Assembly: GCF_044324875.1 (NCBI RefSeq)
Contig: NZ_CP172185.1
Length of the DNA stretch: 64,000 nucleotides
Strand: one strand, 5' to 3'
From: Escherichia coli
Lineage (GTDB): Bacteria; Pseudomonadota; Gammaproteobacteria; Enterobacterales; Enterobacteriaceae
Shown: positions 7,341-62,205 of the stretch, one piece after another
Layout of the letters: every line of letters starts with the position of its first letter
How positions within the stretch are numbered: position 1 is the first letter of the stretch
Notes under the pieces: generated by a model
What the model was told of the DNA's origin: nothing
The model's database searches: none
The model's input: only the letters and a program-made list of their open reading frames with translations
Program-made: the position numbers and the translations under genes

Positions 7341-9845
7341 ATGTCACAAACTATCGACCTGACCCTGGACGGCCTGTCCTGCGGTCACTGCGTTAAACGC
7401 GTGAAAGAAAGTCTCGAACAGCGCCCGGATGTTGAGCAGGCGGATGTGTCTGTCACTGAAGCGCACGTTACCGGGACTGCCAGTGCAGAACAGCTGATCG
7501 AAACCATCAAACAAGCGGGTTATGACGCATCTGTAAGCCACCCAAAGGCTAAACCGCTGGCGGAGTCATCAATCCCGTCGGAAGCACTGACAGCGGTTTC
7601 TGAGGCGCTTCCGGCAGCGACCGCCGATGACGATGACAGCCAGCAGTTGCTGCTGAGCGGCATGAGCTGCGCCAGCTGTGTCACCCGCGTACAAAATGCG
7701 TTGCAAAGCGTACCGGGCGTCACTCAGGCACGGGTAAACCTGGCGGAGCGTACTGCGCTGGTGATGGGCAGTGCCTCCCCACAAGATTTAGTGCAGGCGG
7801 TGGAAAAAGCGGGCTACGGCGCGGAAGCGATTGAAGATGACGCTAAACGCCGCGAGCGCCAGCAGGAAACCGCCGTCGCTACGATGAAGCGCTTCCGCTG
7901 GCAGGCAATTGTCGCACTGGCGGTGGGTATCCCGGTGATGGTCTGGGGGATGATCGGCGATAACATGATGGTCACCGCTGACAACCGCAGCTTGTGGTTA
8001 GTTATCGGCCTGATAACCCTGGCAGTGATGGTTTTCGCCGGCGGCCATTTTTACCGTAGTGCATGGAAAAGCCTGCTGAACGGTGCAGCGACGATGGATA
8101 CGCTGGTGGCGCTGGGTACTGGCGTGGCGTGGCTCTATTCGATGAGCGTCAACCTGTGGCCGCAGTGGTTCCCGATGGAAGCGCGACATCTTTATTACGA
8201 AGCCAGCGCGATGATTATCGGTCTGATCAATCTCGGTCATATGCTGGAAGCGCGCGCACGTCAGCGTTCTTCAAAGGCGCTGGAGAAATTACTCGATTTA
8301 ACCCCACCGACGGCGCGCCTGGTCACCGACGAAGGTGAAAAAAGCGTGCCGCTGGCGGAAGTGCAGCCAGGTATGTTGCTGCGCCTGACGACCGGCGATC
8401 GCGTGCCGGTAGATGGCGAGATTACCCAGGGCGAAGCATGGCTGGATGAAGCGATGCTGACGGGCGAACCAATCCCGCAGCAAAAAGGCGAAGGCGATAG
8501 CGTCCATGCCGGGACAGTGGTACAGGACGGCAGTGTGCTGTTTCGTGCCAGTGCGGTCGGCAGCCATACTACGCTGTCACGAATCATTCGCATGGTGCGC
8601 CAGGCCCAGAGCAGCAAGCCTGAAATCGGCCAACTGGCGGATAAAATCTCCGCTGTGTTTGTGCCGGTGGTGGTAGTCATTGCGCTGATCAGTGCGGCAA
8701 TCTGGTATTTCTTTGGTCCGGCACCGCAGATTGTCTATACCCTGGTGATTGCCACCACGGTGCTGATTATCGCCTGTCCGTGTGCGCTGGGACTGGCGAC
8801 GCCGATGTCGATTATTTCGGGCGTCGGGCGGGCGGCTGAGTTTGGTGTGCTGGTGCGGGACGCCGACGCGCTGCAACGCGCCAGTACGCTCGACACCGTG
8901 GTGTTCGATAAAACCGGGACGCTGACCGAAGGGAAGCCGCAGGTTGTCGCAGTAAAAACATTTGCTGATGTTGATGAAGCGCAAGCATTGCGTCTGGCGG
9001 CGGCGCTGGAGCAAGGTTCCAGCCACCCGCTGGCACGGGCGATCCTCGATAAAGCAGGTGATATGCAGCTACCGCAGGTCAACGGTTTCCGCACATTGCG
9101 CGGGCTGGGTGTGAGCGGTGAAGCTGAAGGTCATGCGGTATTGCTGGGCAATCAGGCGCTGTTAAATGACCAGCAAGTTGATACTAAAGCGATTGAGGCA
9201 GATATTTCAGCTCAGGCATCGCAAGGTGCAACGCCTGTGCTGCTGGCGGTTGACGGGAAAGCGGTAGCCCTGCTGGCTGTACGCGATCCGTTGCGTAGTG
9301 ATAGCGTGGCGGCGCTGCAACGCCTGCATAAAGCGGGATATCGTCTGGTGATGTTGACCGGGGATAACCCAACCACCGCCAATGCGATCGCCAAAGAAGC
9401 AGGGATTGATGAGGTGATAGCCGGCGTGCTGCCGGACGGTAAAGCCGAAGCGATCAAACGTCTTCAAAGTGAAGGACGTCAGGTGGCAATGGTGGGCGAC
9501 GGCATTAACGATGCGCCAGCGCTGGCTCAGGCGGATGTCGGTATTGCGATGGGTGGCGGCAGTGATGTTGCCATTGAAACCGCGGCGATTACCCTGATGC
9601 GCCATAGCCTGATGGGTGTTGCAGATGCGCTCGCGATTTCCCGCGCAACGCTGCGCAATATGAAGCAGAACCTGCTCGGTGCGTTTATCTACAACAGCAT
9701 TGGTATTCCGGTCGCCGCCGGTATTTTGTGGCCGTTCACTGGAACACTGCTTAACCCGGTGGTTGCCGGAGCGGCAATGGCGCTCTCGTCGATTACCGTA
9801 GTGAGTAACGCCAACCGGTTACTGCGGTTTAAACCGAAAGAGTGA
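7341..9845 (+). CDS. copA: Cu(I)-translocating P-type ATPase
   Basis: 834 aa. Two N-terminal CxxC metal-binding domains, CPC motif, DKTGT phosphorylation site. Confidence 0.97.
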
Positions 9846-10273
9846 TTGGTATTTACTTAATGCGTTTGTGAGATCCAGTTCTTGTTGCGCTCCTTTTATG
9901 AGTCATGCCATATAAAGTGACTGGCGCAGGGAGCGCGCAGGGGGCGGCCAATCGCCGCCGCCCCCTGCCCCCCCGGGCTCTGGCGAACAAAATCGCCGCT
10001 GCGCGGTACCCTCAGCTTATCCCTTGCGGCTACCGGGTCGGGCGCGAGGTAACATCCCTGTAAAACGCGCCCTCAGCCCACATCCATGTGGGCTGCCCCG
10101 GCCTTCAGGGAACGCCTCGGCGATTTTGACGCCACCAACACCGGTGCAGTCTTTCGTTTCAAAGCAAAAACAATTTTTCGATCATATTTAAGCTACCACT
10201 GAACAAGCCTCATAACTCCATTTGCGCCATCCCTCCCCGCGCGCTAGCATGATATTTCACAAAGGGAGGTCGT

Positions 10274-11068
10274 ATGGATCTGTTGTACCGGGTAAAAACG
10301 CTTTGGGCCGCGCTGCGCGGTAATCATTACACCTGGCCTGCTATCGATATCTCTCTTCCCGGCAATCGCCATTTTCATCTGATTGGCAGTATTCATATGG
10401 GTAGCCACGATATGGCTCCCCTGCCCACCCGTTTGCTCAAAAAGCTCAAAAACGCCGATGCGCTGATCGTCGAGGCGGATGTTTCCACCAGCGATACGCC
10501 TTTTGCTAATTTGCCTGCCTGCGAGGCGCTGGAAGAGCGCATTAGCGAGGAGCAACTCCAAAATCTGCAGCACATTAGCCAGGAGATGGGCATTTCTACC
10601 TCACTCTTTTCTACCCAACCGCTGTGGCAAATCGCGATGGTTCTTCAGGCGACGCAGGCACAAAAACTGGGGCTGCGGGCAGAATACGGTATCGATTACC
10701 AGCTATTGCAGGCGGCGAAGCAACAACATAAACCCGTGATTGAACTGGAAGGGGCTGAAAACCAGATTGCCATGTTGCTCCAGCTCCCTGACAAAGGACT
10801 GGCGCTGCTGGACGATACGCTGACCCACTGGCACACCAATGCACGGTTGCTGCAACAAATGATGAGCTGGTGGCTGAATGCGCCGCCGCAAAATAATGAA
10901 ATAACGCTGCGTAATACGTTCAGTCAATCGCTGTACGATGTGCTGATGCATCAGCGAAATCTCGCCTGGCGGGACAAATTATGCGCCATGCCGCCGGGGC
11001 GCTATGTGGTCGCAGTCGGTGCACTACACCTGTATGGAGAAGGGAATTTGCCGCAGATGTTGCGCTAA
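10274..11068 (+). CDS. ybaP: TraB-family protein YbaP
   Basis: 264-aa ORF matching E. coli YbaP from memory. Confidence 0.9.
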   Translation: MDLLYRVKTLWAALRGNHYTWPAIDISLPGNRHFHLIGSIHMGSHDMAPLPTRLLKKLKNADALIVEADVSTSDTPFANLPACEALEERISEEQLQNLQHISQEMGISTSLFSTQPLWQIAMVLQATQAQKLGLRAEYGIDYQLLQAAKQQHKPVIELEGAENQIAMLLQLPDKGLALLDDTLTHWHTNARLLQQMMSWWLNAPPQNNEITLRNTFSQSLYDVLMHQRNLAWRDKLCAMPPGRYVVAVGALHLYGEGNLPQMLR

Positions 11069-11150
11069 AAAAATGGCCAATATCGCTATTGGCCCGTCAA
11101 AGAGGAATTTCATATTTTTATTATTATGCCGTCACTTTAAGCGACGGTGT
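11067..11150 (-). ncRNA. chiX: ChiX (SroB/MicM) small RNA
   Basis: Reverse complement reads ACACCGTCGCTTAAAGTGACGGCATAATAATAAAAA...GGCCAATAGCGATATTGGCCATTTTTTT, in the ybaP-ybaK intergenic region. Confidence 0.9.
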
Positions 11151-16799: not shown

Positions 16800-16920
16800 T
16801 TGCCGGATGTAAAATATGAAAAATATGTAGGCATGATAAGACGCGCCAGCGTCGCATCAGGCATTGAGAGCAAAATGCCAGATGCGGCGTGAACGCCTTA
16901 TCTGGCCTACGAACCGACGA
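16800..16920. repeat. REP/BIME palindromic elements
   Basis: GCCGGATG...GCATCAGGC and GCCTTATCTGGCCTACG-type REP sequences between convergent ybaL and gsk. Confidence 0.7.
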
Positions 16921-20299: not shown

Positions 20300-20430
20300 T
20301 ACCGCCTCTTATCGATTCAACTTGTTGATAATTGTAGCGGAAAAGTGAAGAAGAAGAACTAATTGCTGTGAGAGGTATTGCCTGAGGAGGATGAGCAGAC
20401 CTGCCCGAAAGCAGATCTGCTGCGGCTTGA

Positions 20431-24226: not shown

Positions 24227-26158
24227 TCAAATGGGGCGGATACTTTCTTCATCCAGCTCCGCATCGAAGAATCGACGCAGGGTCTGAATATTATTATCCG
24301 CAATAATGGACTCGCGCGCCTGCGCAAGTTTTTCTTCGTATATCGCCTGACGCCATTCCAGCGGCGTACGCACCGCGGGATTATCATCTTCAACGATAGT
24401 CAGTTCAACCGTTGAACCTTTTAACGTGCTCAACGCTTCAGCCAGTTTTTGCTGTGCGCCGCGGTTGTTCAAATGCCGCTGAGAGGAGCGCAAATGCAGA
24501 CATACTGCGTTGTCGCTCTCCTCTTTCCAGGCATTTAACGCCACCTGTTCGACCAGTTTTGGTAGCGAAAGTTGACTCACCTGAGCCGCCCACGGGTCGC
24601 GCTCAATGGCTTCTGCCGCCAGCTTCGCCGCCAGTTCCGGCGTTTTTTCATGTTCCAGCGCTTTTTTTAGCGCCTTCGGCGTGGCGACCACTTCTTTTTG
24701 CTGCATCACTGGAGTGGTAGCCTTCCAGCGATACGCTTCTTTTTTGGCTGGCGCTTTTTCCAGCGCCGATGGCACCGGACGCGCCTGAACGCGATCGGTG
24801 ACCGAAGCCAGTCTTTCCAGCGCAGCGTTATTCACCGGCCGCGCGCGGGTAGCGGCTGCCGGTTCACTCTTTTTTGCTTTGGTTGCTCCCTGCACGCGCT
24901 GCAACTGCTGGCGCGCCGCCAGCACCTGGCTGGTGGTTTCCGGGAGCGGTACAGTCGGTGCCTGCTGCGGCGCTGATTGCGGTTGTGGCGGCACCTGGGT
25001 TGGCGTCATTACTGCCGTTGGCGCAACGAGCGCAAAGGACTGGCGTGGCACTTCTGGCTCAGGCAGAGGCATACGCGGATGGAACGCCAGCGCGCGCAGC
25101 AGCGTCATCTCAACACCCATACGGCGGTCTGGCGCATACGGTAATTCTTTGCGACCAATCAACAGCGTCTGATAGTAAAGCTGAATATCCGTCGGCGGTA
25201 TGGTGCGCGCCAGTTCACGCATCCGCAGCTCAATGGCGGCCATGTCGTTGCCAAGAGCAGCAGGCGAAAGTTGTACCATCGCAATACGATGCAACAGACC
25301 GAGCATTTCCACCAGCAACGCTTCCCACTCGATACCACGGGCAGCAGCTTCATTAATTAGCGCCATTACGCGCTCGCCGTTGGCCTCGACCATCGCTTCA
25401 ACCAGCGATAACGCCTGATCGTCGTCAAGCGTACCCAGCATCGCACTGACCGCCTGGGTTGAAACCTGGCCGTCACCGCTGGCAATCGCCTGGTCGGTCA
25501 GACTTAAGGCATCTCGCAGGCTGCCTTCAGCGGCGCGTGCCAACAATTGCAGCGCCCGCGGCTCGTGAGCGATATGTTCTTCGTTGAGGATGTGCTCAAG
25601 CTGATGGCGAATTTGCTCGACATCCAGCGCCTTGAGATGAAATTGCAGACAGCGTGACAAAATCGTCACCGGCAATTTCTGCGGATCGGTCGTCGCCAGC
25701 AAAAACTTAACGTGCTCTGGCGGCTCTTCAAGGGTTTTTAACAGTGCGTTAAAGCTGTGACGCGACAGCATATGCACTTCGTCGATGAGATAAACTTTGA
25801 AACGACCACGCGCCGGAGCGTACTGGACGTTATCCAGCAGGTCGCGAGTGTCTTCAACTTTAGTGCGCGAGGCGGCGTCGATTTCAATCAGATCGACAAA
25901 GCGCCCCTGCTCGATTTCACGACAATTATCGCACACGCCGCACGGCGTCGCGGTAATGCCGGTTTCGCAGTTTAGCCCCTTCGCCAGCAGTCGGGCGATA
26001 GAGGTTTTTCCGACGCCACGGGTACCGGAAAAAAGATAAGCATGATGAATACGCCCTAACGACAAGCCGTTCGCCAGTGCGGTCAGCACATGTTCCTGGC
26101 CGACGACGTCAGCAAAGGTTTGTGGGCGCCATTTTCGGGCTAAGACCTGATAACTCAT
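24227..26158 (-). CDS. dnaX: DNA polymerase III tau subunit; gamma arises by programmed -1 frameshift
   Basis: 643 aa. A AAA AAG slippery heptamer (plus-strand cttttttg, 24869-24876) at codons encoding AKKSE. Confidence 0.97.
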   Translation of the reverse strand: MSYQVLARKWRPQTFADVVGQEHVLTALANGLSLGRIHHAYLFSGTRGVGKTSIARLLAKGLNCETGITATPCGVCDNCREIEQGRFVDLIEIDAASRTKVEDTRDLLDNVQYAPARGRFKVYLIDEVHMLSRHSFNALLKTLEEPPEHVKFLLATTDPQKLPVTILSRCLQFHLKALDVEQIRHQLEHILNEEHIAHEPRALQLLARAAEGSLRDALSLTDQAIASGDGQVSTQAVSAMLGTLDDDQALSLVEAMVEANGERVMALINEAAARGIEWEALLVEMLGLLHRIAMVQLSPAALGNDMAAIELRMRELARTIPPTDIQLYYQTLLIGRKELPYAPDRRMGVEMTLLRALAFHPRMPLPEPEVPRQSFALVAPTAVMTPTQVPPQPQSAPQQAPTVPLPETTSQVLAARQQLQRVQGATKAKKSEPAAATRARPVNNAALERLASVTDRVQARPVPSALEKAPAKKEAYRWKATTPVMQQKEVVATPKALKKALEHEKTPELAAKLAAEAIERDPWAAQVSQLSLPKLVEQVALNAWKEESDNAVCLHLRSSQRHLNNRGAQQKLAEALSTLKGSTVELTIVEDDNPAVRTPLEWRQAIYEEKLAQARESIIADNNIQTLRRFFDAELDEESIRPI

Positions 26159-41689: not shown

Positions 41690-41803
41690 GGGTGGGGGCC
41701 CTGCCAGCTACATCCCGGCACACGCGTCATCTGCCTTGGCTGCTTCCTTCCGGACCTGACCTGGTAAACAGAGTAGCGTTGCGGGAGAACCAACAGAGCC
41801 CCC
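41690..41803 (-). ncRNA. ffs: 4.5S RNA (SRP RNA)
   Basis: Reverse complement reads GGGGGCTCTGTTGGTTCTCCCGCAACGCTACTCTGTTTACCAGGTCAGGTCCGGAAGGAAGCAGCC...GGGCCCCCACC. Ends are accurate to about 1 nt. Confidence 0.95.
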
Positions 41804-53848: not shown

Positions 53849-54092
53849 AGCGCAATAACCTTACGTTGTTTTTATAAAAACTGTTATAAGTGCAAAATGG
53901 CATCTGAATCGATCGCAGTTTGGCATTCGAATCGATCATGATTTGGCATCCATCTCCGATCACAGTTTGGCATCACAATCGATCACGATTTGGCATGCTT
54001 CCGATCATTGATTGGCATCCTGCCAGTCACTCCGGGAATTAACTCTTTTCACCACAGTCTCCATTGCCGTGTTTAAACCAGTGGAGACGTCA

Positions 54093-55658
54093 ATGTCCAG
54101 AAAGAGAAAATCCAGGAGCACTATGGAAACCTGTTTTAAGATCCTTCAGCTCAAGTTCGACAAGAAGCTGACTAACCGTTGTATCGGACTGACGTTACAC
54201 ATCAGCGCCTCAACCGTTTTTGAGGTTCTTGCCCGCTTCAAAGCCTCTTCTCTGTCATGGCCATTACCTGCTGATATATCCCATGACACGCTGGAGAAAC
54301 TCATTTTTCCGCCCAAAGACACCTTTGCATCAGAGCTTGTAATGCCTGACATGTTGTACTTCGATACGGAAATGAGAAAACCAGGTGTGACGCGGCAACT
54401 GTTGTGGATGGAATACAAGGCACAGGCGGGTAACAAAGCGATGGGATACTCGCACTTCTGCCGTTGCTACCGGGAGTGGAAAAAAACGCGACGTCTCTCC
54501 ATGCGCCAGGAGCATCGTGCCGGCGAAAAGCTTTTTATCGACTTCTGTGGTCCTACGGTTCCTGTTATTAATCCGGACACCGGTGAGATACGCCGCGTGG
54601 CAATCTTCGTGGCCGTAATGGGGGCGTCCAACTATACCTACGTTGAAGCGTGCGAAGGTCAGGACATGATGTCATGGTTAAATGCCCACAGCCGTTGCCT
54701 GACCTTCCTGGGCGGCGTACCGAAGCTGCTCATCCCCGATAACCTCAGAAGCGCAGTGAAAAAGGCCGATCGATATGAGCCTGTCATCAACGACAGTTAT
54801 CAGGCACTGGCTGAGCACTATGGCACGGTTATCATCCCGGCCCGACCACGCAAACCTAAAGATAAACCAAAAGCAGAAAACGGCGTCCTCATCGTTGAAC
54901 GATGGCTTCTTGCCCGCATCCGTAATGAAACCTTCCACACGCTCAGGGCGCTGAATGCGCGCCTTAGGGAGTTACTGACAGACATGAATAACCGGCCAAT
55001 GAAGGGGTACGGCAATCAAACCCGTGCAGAACGCTTCCGCATACTGGATGCGCCAGCACTCTCTCCGCTGCCTCTGGCACCTTATGAATACACGGAATAC
55101 AAAGCTGTGAAGGTTGGCCCTGACTACCACGTTGAATATGCCCGTCACTGGTACTCCGTTCCACACGAACTGGTCGGTCAGCGTCTGTCACTGAAGGCGG
55201 GGCAGTCGGTGGTACAGCTCTGGCACAAGGGGCAGTGTGTGGCGCAACATCCGCGCAGCACACATGAATATAAACACACAACCAATCCGCTTCACATGCC
55301 AGAGCGCCACCGGCAGCACGGGACATGGACACCGGAACGCCTGATCGAGCAGGGAAAACGTACGGGCCCGTCCACAGGCCGGGTGGTTGAATCCATGCTG
55401 AAGGCAAAACCCCATCCGGAACTGGCTTATCGTGCAGTTCTGGGGCTGCTGGCACTTCAGAAAAAATACGGCCCGGAACGGCTGGAAAAGGCCTGTTACG
55501 TTGCCCTGCACTATAACGCCCCTGACAGACGCTTTATCGACAATCTGCTGCGTCACCATCGGGAGAACCTGGAGCTTCCATTATCCCGCCAGGGCGAACA
55601 ACATCCGGCATATGCTTCAGAGCATGAAAACCTGCGTGGTCCGGGCTACTACCACTGA
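54093..55658 (+). CDS. istA: IS21-family transposase IstA
   Basis: About 521 aa from ATG 54093. N-terminal HTH followed by an integrase-like catalytic core. Confidence 0.85.
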   Translation: MSRKRKSRSTMETCFKILQLKFDKKLTNRCIGLTLHISASTVFEVLARFKASSLSWPLPADISHDTLEKLIFPPKDTFASELVMPDMLYFDTEMRKPGVTRQLLWMEYKAQAGNKAMGYSHFCRCYREWKKTRRLSMRQEHRAGEKLFIDFCGPTVPVINPDTGEIRRVAIFVAVMGASNYTYVEACEGQDMMSWLNAHSRCLTFLGGVPKLLIPDNLRSAVKKADRYEPVINDSYQALAEHYGTVIIPARPRKPKDKPKAENGVLIVERWLLARIRNETFHTLRALNARLRELLTDMNNRPMKGYGNQTRAERFRILDAPALSPLPLAPYEYTEYKAVKVGPDYHVEYARHWYSVPHELVGQRLSLKAGQSVVQLWHKGQCVAQHPRSTHEYKHTTNPLHMPERHRQHGTWTPERLIEQGKRTGPSTGRVVESMLKAKPHPELAYRAVLGLLALQKKYGPERLEKACYVALHYNAPDRRFIDNLLRHHRENLELPLSRQGEQHPAYASEHENLRGPGYYH

Positions 55659-55674
55659 CAGAAGGAACAACAGT

Positions 55675-56430
55675 ATGAGTGATAACCTGTTAAACAAACT
55701 GACCCAACTGAAACTCCCGGCGATGGCCGGGAGCCTGATACGGCAGCGGGAAACGCCTCAGACCTACGACGAACTGTCGTTCGAGGAAAGGCTGACGCTG
55801 CTGGTTGATGACGAGCTTCTGAGCAGGGAAAACAGCCGTGTGGCACGGTTGAGAAAAAATGCCGGCCTGAAATACCAGGCAACACCGGAAGGGCTGCGCT
55901 ATCCGGCCTCAAGAGGTCTGCGGGCTGAACAGATGAGAGAACTGCTGAACGGCCACTACATAACCCACAGGAAAAACCTGCTGATAACCGGTCCGACAGG
56001 ATGTGGCAAGAGCTGGATAGCCAATGCGCTGGGCGAACAGGCATGTCGACAGAAACACAGCGTCCGGTACTGTAGAACCGGGCGATTACTGGAACAACTG
56101 GCTCAGGGACGTGTTGATGGCAGCTGGCTGAAATATCTGAAACAGTTGCAAAAAATACAGGTTCTAATCCTGGACGATCTGGGGCTGGAACAGTTAAGTA
56201 ACGCCCAGTGTAATGACCTTCTGGAGCTCATAGAGGATCGTTACGGACAAAGCAGCACGATAGTGGTAAGCCAGTTCCCGGTAGATAAATGGCATGGTCT
56301 GATGGAGAACCCAACAACAGCAGATGCCATCCTGGACAGACTGGTACATAACTCACACCGAGTGGTCCTTCAGGGAGAGTCACTGAGGAAAAATCCCCCG
56401 GTAGTGGAAAGCAGCGAAAAAACGCGTTAA
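55675..56430 (+). CDS. istB: IS21-family ATP-binding helper protein IstB
   Basis: 251 aa from MSDNLLNKLTQLKLP. Walker A (GPTGCGKS) and Walker B (ILDDLG). Starts 17 nt after the istA stop. Confidence 0.88.
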   Translation: MSDNLLNKLTQLKLPAMAGSLIRQRETPQTYDELSFEERLTLLVDDELLSRENSRVARLRKNAGLKYQATPEGLRYPASRGLRAEQMRELLNGHYITHRKNLLITGPTGCGKSWIANALGEQACRQKHSVRYCRTGRLLEQLAQGRVDGSWLKYLKQLQKIQVLILDDLGLEQLSNAQCNDLLELIEDRYGQSSTIVVSQFPVDKWHGLMENPTTADAILDRLVHNSHRVVLQGESLRKNPPVVESSEKTR

Positions 56431-56545
56431 AAAGCGGTAGAAAAAGTTAAGTTCCCGGTTGATCGAATGGATGCGAATCGCTGATCGGACTTCGATGCCA
56501 ATCCGTGATCGAATAGAGCGGAATACGCAATAAGTACAGAGGTCA

Positions 56546-62018: not shown

Positions 62019-62205
62019 AGAGCTCTCTCTTAGTTTAATTTCCGCCAGGTAATCAGATGACACGACTGTGCTTCACGCCATCTATTAACATGTACGTCAG
62101 TATATGGGGATGTTTCCCCCACATTCAACGCCGAGAATAGAGGAAAAATTAAAGGGGAGATAAAATCCCCCCTTTTTGGTTAACTAATTGTATGGGAATG
62201 GTTAA

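Follow-up and report, generated by a model that had tools for sequence, protein, structure and literature searches.

Does dnaX in this strain of Escherichia coli carry an intact programmed -1 frameshift site, at which the gamma subunit would be produced alongside tau, or is the run of A residues in the gene merely part of its coding sequence? The question arises from a stretch of 64,000 nucleotides (in the following referred to as the window), in which an initial annotation had reported the tau/gamma site of dnaX as intact, mainly as an internal control for the reading and its coordinates. The window is part of a non-K-12 E. coli chromosome and runs in the opposite direction to the K-12 coordinates. 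The evidence assembled below points to the canonical cassette for programmed -1 ribosomal frameshifting in E. coli dnaX, a reading to which we assign a probability of about 97%.

The dnaX gene and its slippery heptamer

The 0-frame coding sequence of dnaX extends from position 26158 to 24227 on the minus strand and specifies tau, a protein of 643 amino acids with a predicted mass of 71.1 kDa. This assignment relies on the list of open reading frames, on Pfam, on a PDB match and on comparison with K-12, as well as on the gene order htpG-recR-ybaB-dnaX-apt-ybaN-priC, which is the same in CFT073 and K-12 and places htpG, recR and ybaB downstream and apt, ybaN and priC upstream of dnaX. Pfam assigns residues 20–358 to the clamp-loader core (AAA+ core and lid, residues 20–230; gamma/tau domain III, residues 232–358), residues 417–498 to the DnaB-binding domain IV of tau and residues 500–640 to the alpha-binding domain V. 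A PDB search using the DnaX sequence matched E. coli tau over its full length and also a chain of 431 residues (entry 8giy). The gene differs from its K-12 counterpart in 39 out of 1932 nucleotides, resulting in two amino acid exchanges (P377L and M578T), and from that of CFT073 in 15 nucleotides.

The slippery heptamer A AAA AAG is located on the minus strand at positions 24869 to 24875 and is composed of the last base of the Ala428 codon and the codons for Lys429 and Lys430, as judged from sequence and phase. Around the site the coding (minus) strand reads GTGCAGGGAGCAACCAAAGCAAAAAAGAGTGAACCGGCAGCCGCTACCCGCGCGCGGCCGGTGAATAAC; in the 0 frame the heptamer reads QGATKAKKSEPAAA and the translated context is QQLQRVQGATKAKKSEPAAATRARPVNNAALERLASV. 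The latter includes the residues AKKSE, and the earlier statement that the heptamer sits at the codons for these residues is borne out by the order GCA (428), AAA (429), AAG (430) and AGT (431). The coordinates that had been given, 24869–24876, are exactly those of the plus-strand 8-mer cttttttg, whereas the heptamer itself occupies 24875 to 24869 and position 24876 is the C of the GCA codon. Relative to the gene start the heptamer comprises nucleotides 1284–1290, an offset of 2 mod 3 that corresponds to the X XXY YYZ phase.

Read in the -1 frame from position 24875, the sequence is AAA AAA GAG TGA, i.e. Lys-Lys-Glu followed by a stop. This TGA (24866 to 24864, minus strand) is reached one codon (GAG, Glu431) past the slip and coincides with the end of the gamma coding sequence of K-12. 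The gamma coding span (24864 to 26158, minus strand) is composed of codons 1–430 in frame 0, the -1 slip at 24869 and GAG TGA, and yields a predicted protein of 431 amino acids and 47.6 kDa, which ends in TKAKKE and gains a single unique residue, Glu, by the shift. In K-12, gamma is annotated as a two-piece CDS (YP_009518751.1) with the same start and an equal span of 1295 nt, the last base of which is equivalent to position 24864 of the window. The frameshift site, at codon 430 of 643, is thus situated about two-thirds along dnaX, where the clamp-loader core gives way to the tau-specific domains, and according to the Pfam limits a truncation at residue 430 costs gamma nearly all of domain IV and the whole of domain V. 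The RefSeq record of CFT073 lists the frameshifting element as a feature and contains no separate gamma CDS.

The bare heptamer was rejected as evidence: AAAAAAG occurs 24 times on the two strands of the window, as compared to 13.3 ± 3.6 times in shuffled sequences. Three copies reside on the coding strand of dnaX. Two of these, at 24745 to 24739 and 24667 to 24661, were discarded as candidates, being in the phase AAA AAA G and not X XXY YYZ; the shift-prone phase is restricted to the copy at 24875 to 24869. The abundance of the motif is what speaks for an incidental Lys-Lys codon pair, at which no recoding occurs and tau is the only product, and the sequences flanking the heptamer bear directly on this alternative.

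Stimulatory elements and their conservation

The heptamer is embedded in a 65-nt element (24830 to 24894, minus strand), which was detected by cmscan as the DnaX ribosomal frameshifting element of Rfam (RF00382). The match scores 96.8 bits, compared to a gathering score of 35, and has an E-value of 5.8e-20. Since the model is matched over its full length (positions 1–65 of 65) with this score and E-value, the composite element is far beyond chance. On its 5' side it contains the Shine-Dalgarno (SD)-like sequence AGGGAG (24886 to 24891, minus strand), which is invariant in the Rfam consensus and separated from the heptamer by a spacer of 10 nt (24885 to 24876). A stimulatory role of this sequence is known from the literature.

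On the 3' side, a stem-loop is predicted at positions 24863 to 24834 (minus strand), as had been anticipated together with the nearby -1 stop codon in the initial annotation. It starts 5 nt downstream of the heptamer, following AGUGA. Its lower stem comprises 6 bp and is separated by a bulged A from an upper stem of 5 bp, which itself has a bulged C and carries a loop of 5 nt. The minimum free energy (MFE) structure of the 31-nt stretch from 24863 to 24833 has an energy of -18.7 kcal/mol and is identical to the Rfam structure line. Because the region is G+C-rich, this energy is only moderately more favourable than that of composition-matched sequences (z of -1.8 relative to dinucleotide shuffles; 8 to 13 out of 200 shuffles were equally stable). 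Folding energy alone is therefore weak evidence, and conservation and covariation were used instead.

Within E. coli the element hardly varies. Its 65 nt are identical in K-12 and CFT073, and 171 nt around the site were matched in 5424 of 5426 complete E. coli genomes, with at least 99% identity in 5323 of them. Every row among the matches listed carries the RefSeq label 'DnaX frameshifting element'. The K-12 element shares all of its features with the site described here, i.e. the 65 nt, Lys429-Lys430, AGGGAG at -10, the hairpin and a gamma of 431 residues ending in KKE; the difference is one of strain background only, the 39 nucleotide exchanges being located elsewhere in the gene. As judged from this identity, the cassette is an already known and ordinary one.

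To assess conservation across species, one genome per species from 100,044 species was scanned with the pattern AGGGAG-N10-AAAAAAGAGTGA, which fixes the SD-like sequence, the spacer length, the heptamer and AGTGA (containing the -1 stop) but places no constraint on the hairpin. At least 120 loci matched, and at least 77 of these are dnaX loci of Enterobacterales, an identity that was confirmed by tblastn where the flanking sequence sufficed. They derive from Citrobacter, Enterobacter, Kosakonia, Pluralibacter, Kluyvera, Buttiauxella, Serratia, Pantoea, Erwinia, Mixta and others. From the scan, 41 distinct dnaX sequences were aligned with the window. When the Rfam structure was imposed on this alignment, 87.7% of the pair cells were standard pairs, as compared to 29–52% when the 3' partners were slid by 1–3 columns. 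Of the 41 sequences, 40 retain the hairpin, with compensatory changes: in 29 sequences the stem is closed by A-U and in 12 by G-C, and pair 36–57 is changed from G-C to A-U in Mixta. This covariation is to be read with the caveat that the stretch also encodes protein in tau, and the 12 closing G-C pairs largely belong to one clade (Pantoea, Erwinia, Mixta, Buttiauxella) and so represent few independent events. Predicted MFEs range from -18 to -30 kcal/mol, and the hairpin has the same design and the same distance from the heptamer in all but one sequence.

The exception is Candidatus Pantoea persica, the sole recovered dnaX locus in which the standard hairpin is broken, by a deletion (GCCGGCAGCGTCGGC); the SD-like element, the heptamer and the -1 stop are retained. 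The attempt to describe the upper stem by one consensus structure also failed, as two registers are used in different genera. The E. coli-type register (pairs 41–51, 42–50 and 43–49, with the bulged C) fits about 20 sequences and the Enterobacter/Pantoea-type register (41–52 and 42–51) about 20–23; common to both are the lower 8 pairs only. Overall, the cross-genus alignment lends independent support to the published hairpin as a predicted structure and adds nothing new conceptually.

The scan also returned at least 35 loci in Collinsella and at least 8 scattered ones that are not dnaX. The latter look like chance matches. The Collinsella loci (among them L035, positions 9769 to 9796 on the minus strand, as well as L003, L004 and L013) contain AGGGAG-N10-A AAA AAG AG TGA, 28 nt in length, at codons 2–10 of the gene for a primary sigma factor (rpoD/sigA-like), in X XXY YYZ phase and with an immediate -1 stop. 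No dnaX-type hairpin was found at these rpoD/sigA-like loci, and the pattern probably arose once, by chance, in an ancestor from which many species bins of close relatives have inherited it.

Taken together, these data leave the proposal of an incidental codon pair without recoding hardly any credit. Of the copies in dnaX, only the heptamer at 24875 to 24869 has the phase required for a shift, and it is accompanied by both stimulators and by a -1 stop that follows at once. The element is identical to the characterised one of K-12; it does not vary within E. coli and is retained in Enterobacterales, in spite of variation in the surrounding linker of tau.

Other known or possible recoding sites and features in the window

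A second heptamer in dnaX merits separate consideration. At nucleotide 1491 of the gene (window position 24668) the strain carries a synonymous G-to-A exchange (CTG to CTA, Leu497), which is absent from K-12 and CFT073 and creates an in-phase A AAA AAA at 24668 to 24662 (minus strand, codons 497–499). A -1 shift at this position would yield a protein of 503 amino acids ending in KKSAGT. With an 89-nt BLAST query, the exact 89-mer with the A allele was detected in no more than 325 of 5424 complete E. coli genomes. A 61-nt query remained unmatched, probably due to masking of the A run, which left no 28-nt seed. Neither an upstream SD-like element nor a dnaX-type hairpin at the right distance was found for this heptamer, and in E. 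coli A AAA AAG reportedly induces shifting far more readily than A AAA AAA. Hence we regard it as very unlikely, though slightly less so than the alternatives for gamma discussed here, that low-level -1 shifting at 24668 to 24662 gives rise to a third DnaX product of 503 residues from this minority allele. If it did, the product would keep the DnaB-binding domain IV and lack the alpha-binding domain V.

Another slippery heptamer, the known -1 site C CCA AAG, is present intact in copA at 7541 to 7547 (plus strand), in phase at codons 67–69 counted from the ATG at 7341. Here the -1 frame reads CCC AAA GGC TAA, with the stop at 7550 to 7552, and yields the copper chaperone CopA(Z) of 70 amino acids; position 7552 is also where the two-piece CopA(Z) CDS of K-12 (YP_009518752.1) ends. 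E. coli copA resembles dnaX in that its X XXY YYZ heptamer also ends in AAG and a stop is reached soon after the -1 shift, leading to a truncated N-terminal product with a function of its own, but the gene, the heptamer, the stimulators and the product are different. Next to copA, the tail-gene end of a P2-like prophage (1 to about 7268) encodes the tape measure protein, gpE/E', tail tube, sheath, gpD and ogr. This prophage is absent from K-12 at copA, and at least 80% of the stretch is covered in only 28 of 5426 E. coli genomes. Its E ORF (2445 to 2083, minus strand) contains an in-phase T TTT TTG at 2137 to 2131, from which the -1 frame opens into the E' ORF. We take this to be the frameshift that is conserved in the tail chaperones of P2-like phages; the window would then contain a third recoding site.

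In comparison to K-12, the window further contains a 2.65-kb insertion between ybaV and fadM, an IS21-family element (istA/istB, ISSso4-like) at about 53878 to 56529. It is 99.5–99.9% identical to IS21-family elements annotated as istA/istB, which occupy as many as 24 sites in a single genome of other E. coli. Two short stretches could not be aligned to K-12: at 9842 to 10201 about 360 bp are present in place of about 727 bp including ybaQ, and at 20377 to 20429 a short stretch of the intergenic region between adk and hemH differs in length. Four RNAs were detected with Rfam above their gathering scores, namely sraA (62090 to 62185, plus strand, 106.7 bits), sroB (11067 to 11150, minus strand, 81.1 bits), naRNA4 (16830 to 16907, minus strand, 74.7 bits) and the 4.5S RNA of the signal recognition particle, ffs (41699 to 41795, minus strand, 68.1 bits). 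K-12 annotates ChiX at the position corresponding to sroB. All four are expected in this part of the E. coli chromosome.

Proposed mechanism and competing routes to gamma

For the dnaX cassette, the following sequence of events can be proposed. A ribosome arriving at A AAA AAG would hold tRNA-Lys on both AAA and AAG, while the stem-loop 5 nt downstream would hinder translocation and the anti-SD sequence of its 16S rRNA would pair with AGGGAG 10 nt upstream. Both tRNA-Lys would then move back by one base and pair with AAA AAA, and the shifted ribosome would add Glu at GAG and terminate at TGA, releasing gamma with 431 residues. Ribosomes that do not shift would continue and produce tau with 643 residues. 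Gamma would keep the clamp-loader domains I–III and lack the DnaB-binding domain IV and the polymerase-alpha-binding domain V; it should therefore be able to load clamps and unable to tether DnaB or the polymerase core.

This scheme follows published work on the K-12 cassette. The weak pairing of AAG with the sole tRNA-Lys of E. coli (anticodon mnm5s2UUU) makes A AAA AAG a particularly slippery sequence in this species. The stem-loop hinders translocation, during which both tRNAs slip, and a slower route involving one tRNA operates under aminoacyl-tRNA limitation. The efficiency of the K-12 shift is about 50%, with reporters yielding 45–70%; it varies with the ribosome load of the reporter (about 70% versus 45%) and amounts to about 40% when the SD-like element is inactivated. 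On the basis of this literature on the identical sequence, we infer that frameshifting in the present strain would occur at roughly 50% through two-tRNA slippage during translocation, and identity to the K-12 cassette suggests that gamma would be made at about a 1:1 ratio with tau. The -1 frameshift of IS911, an IS3-family transposase gene, exhibits the same spatial arrangement according to the literature. In this case, the shift fuses two ORFs to give a longer transposase, whereas the shift in dnaX truncates the protein one codon on; the genes and the structures are unrelated.

Gamma could alternatively originate during transcription, if RNA polymerase slipped on the run of A residues. There is precedent for this route in dnaX of Thermus thermophilus, where the gene likewise gives rise to tau and gamma at about 1:1, and the site in the window does contain a homopolymeric run of six A residues. 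However, unlike the E. coli gene, Thermus dnaX possesses a longer A run and its host has two tRNA-Lys species, and efficient bacterial cases of transcriptional slippage have been described at runs of about 9 A or T. The conserved SD-like element at fixed spacing and the conserved hairpin are stimulators directed at the ribosome, and the identical K-12 cassette shifts in purified translation systems supplied with defined mRNA. We consider a transcriptional origin of gamma in this strain as close to negligible. Proteolysis of tau, which generates gamma in Caulobacter crescentus and would leave the cassette here as a vestige, is equally implausible, as the origin of gamma by frameshifting is established for E. 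coli with an identical cassette and a vestigial element would not remain invariant over more than 5,000 genomes.

Programmed -1 ribosomal frameshifting thus remains the favoured reading of the site, and none of the observations speaks against it. The heptamer is unmutated and in phase and the 65 nt are those of K-12, in agreement with the initial annotation, which had aptly treated the site as an internal control: strand, codon phase and coordinates of the reading are sound to within one base. The significance of the finding is that of a control only. For annotation, pipelines that emit a single dnaX CDS miss gamma; as for the organism, the strain carries an unaltered tau/gamma recoding signal.
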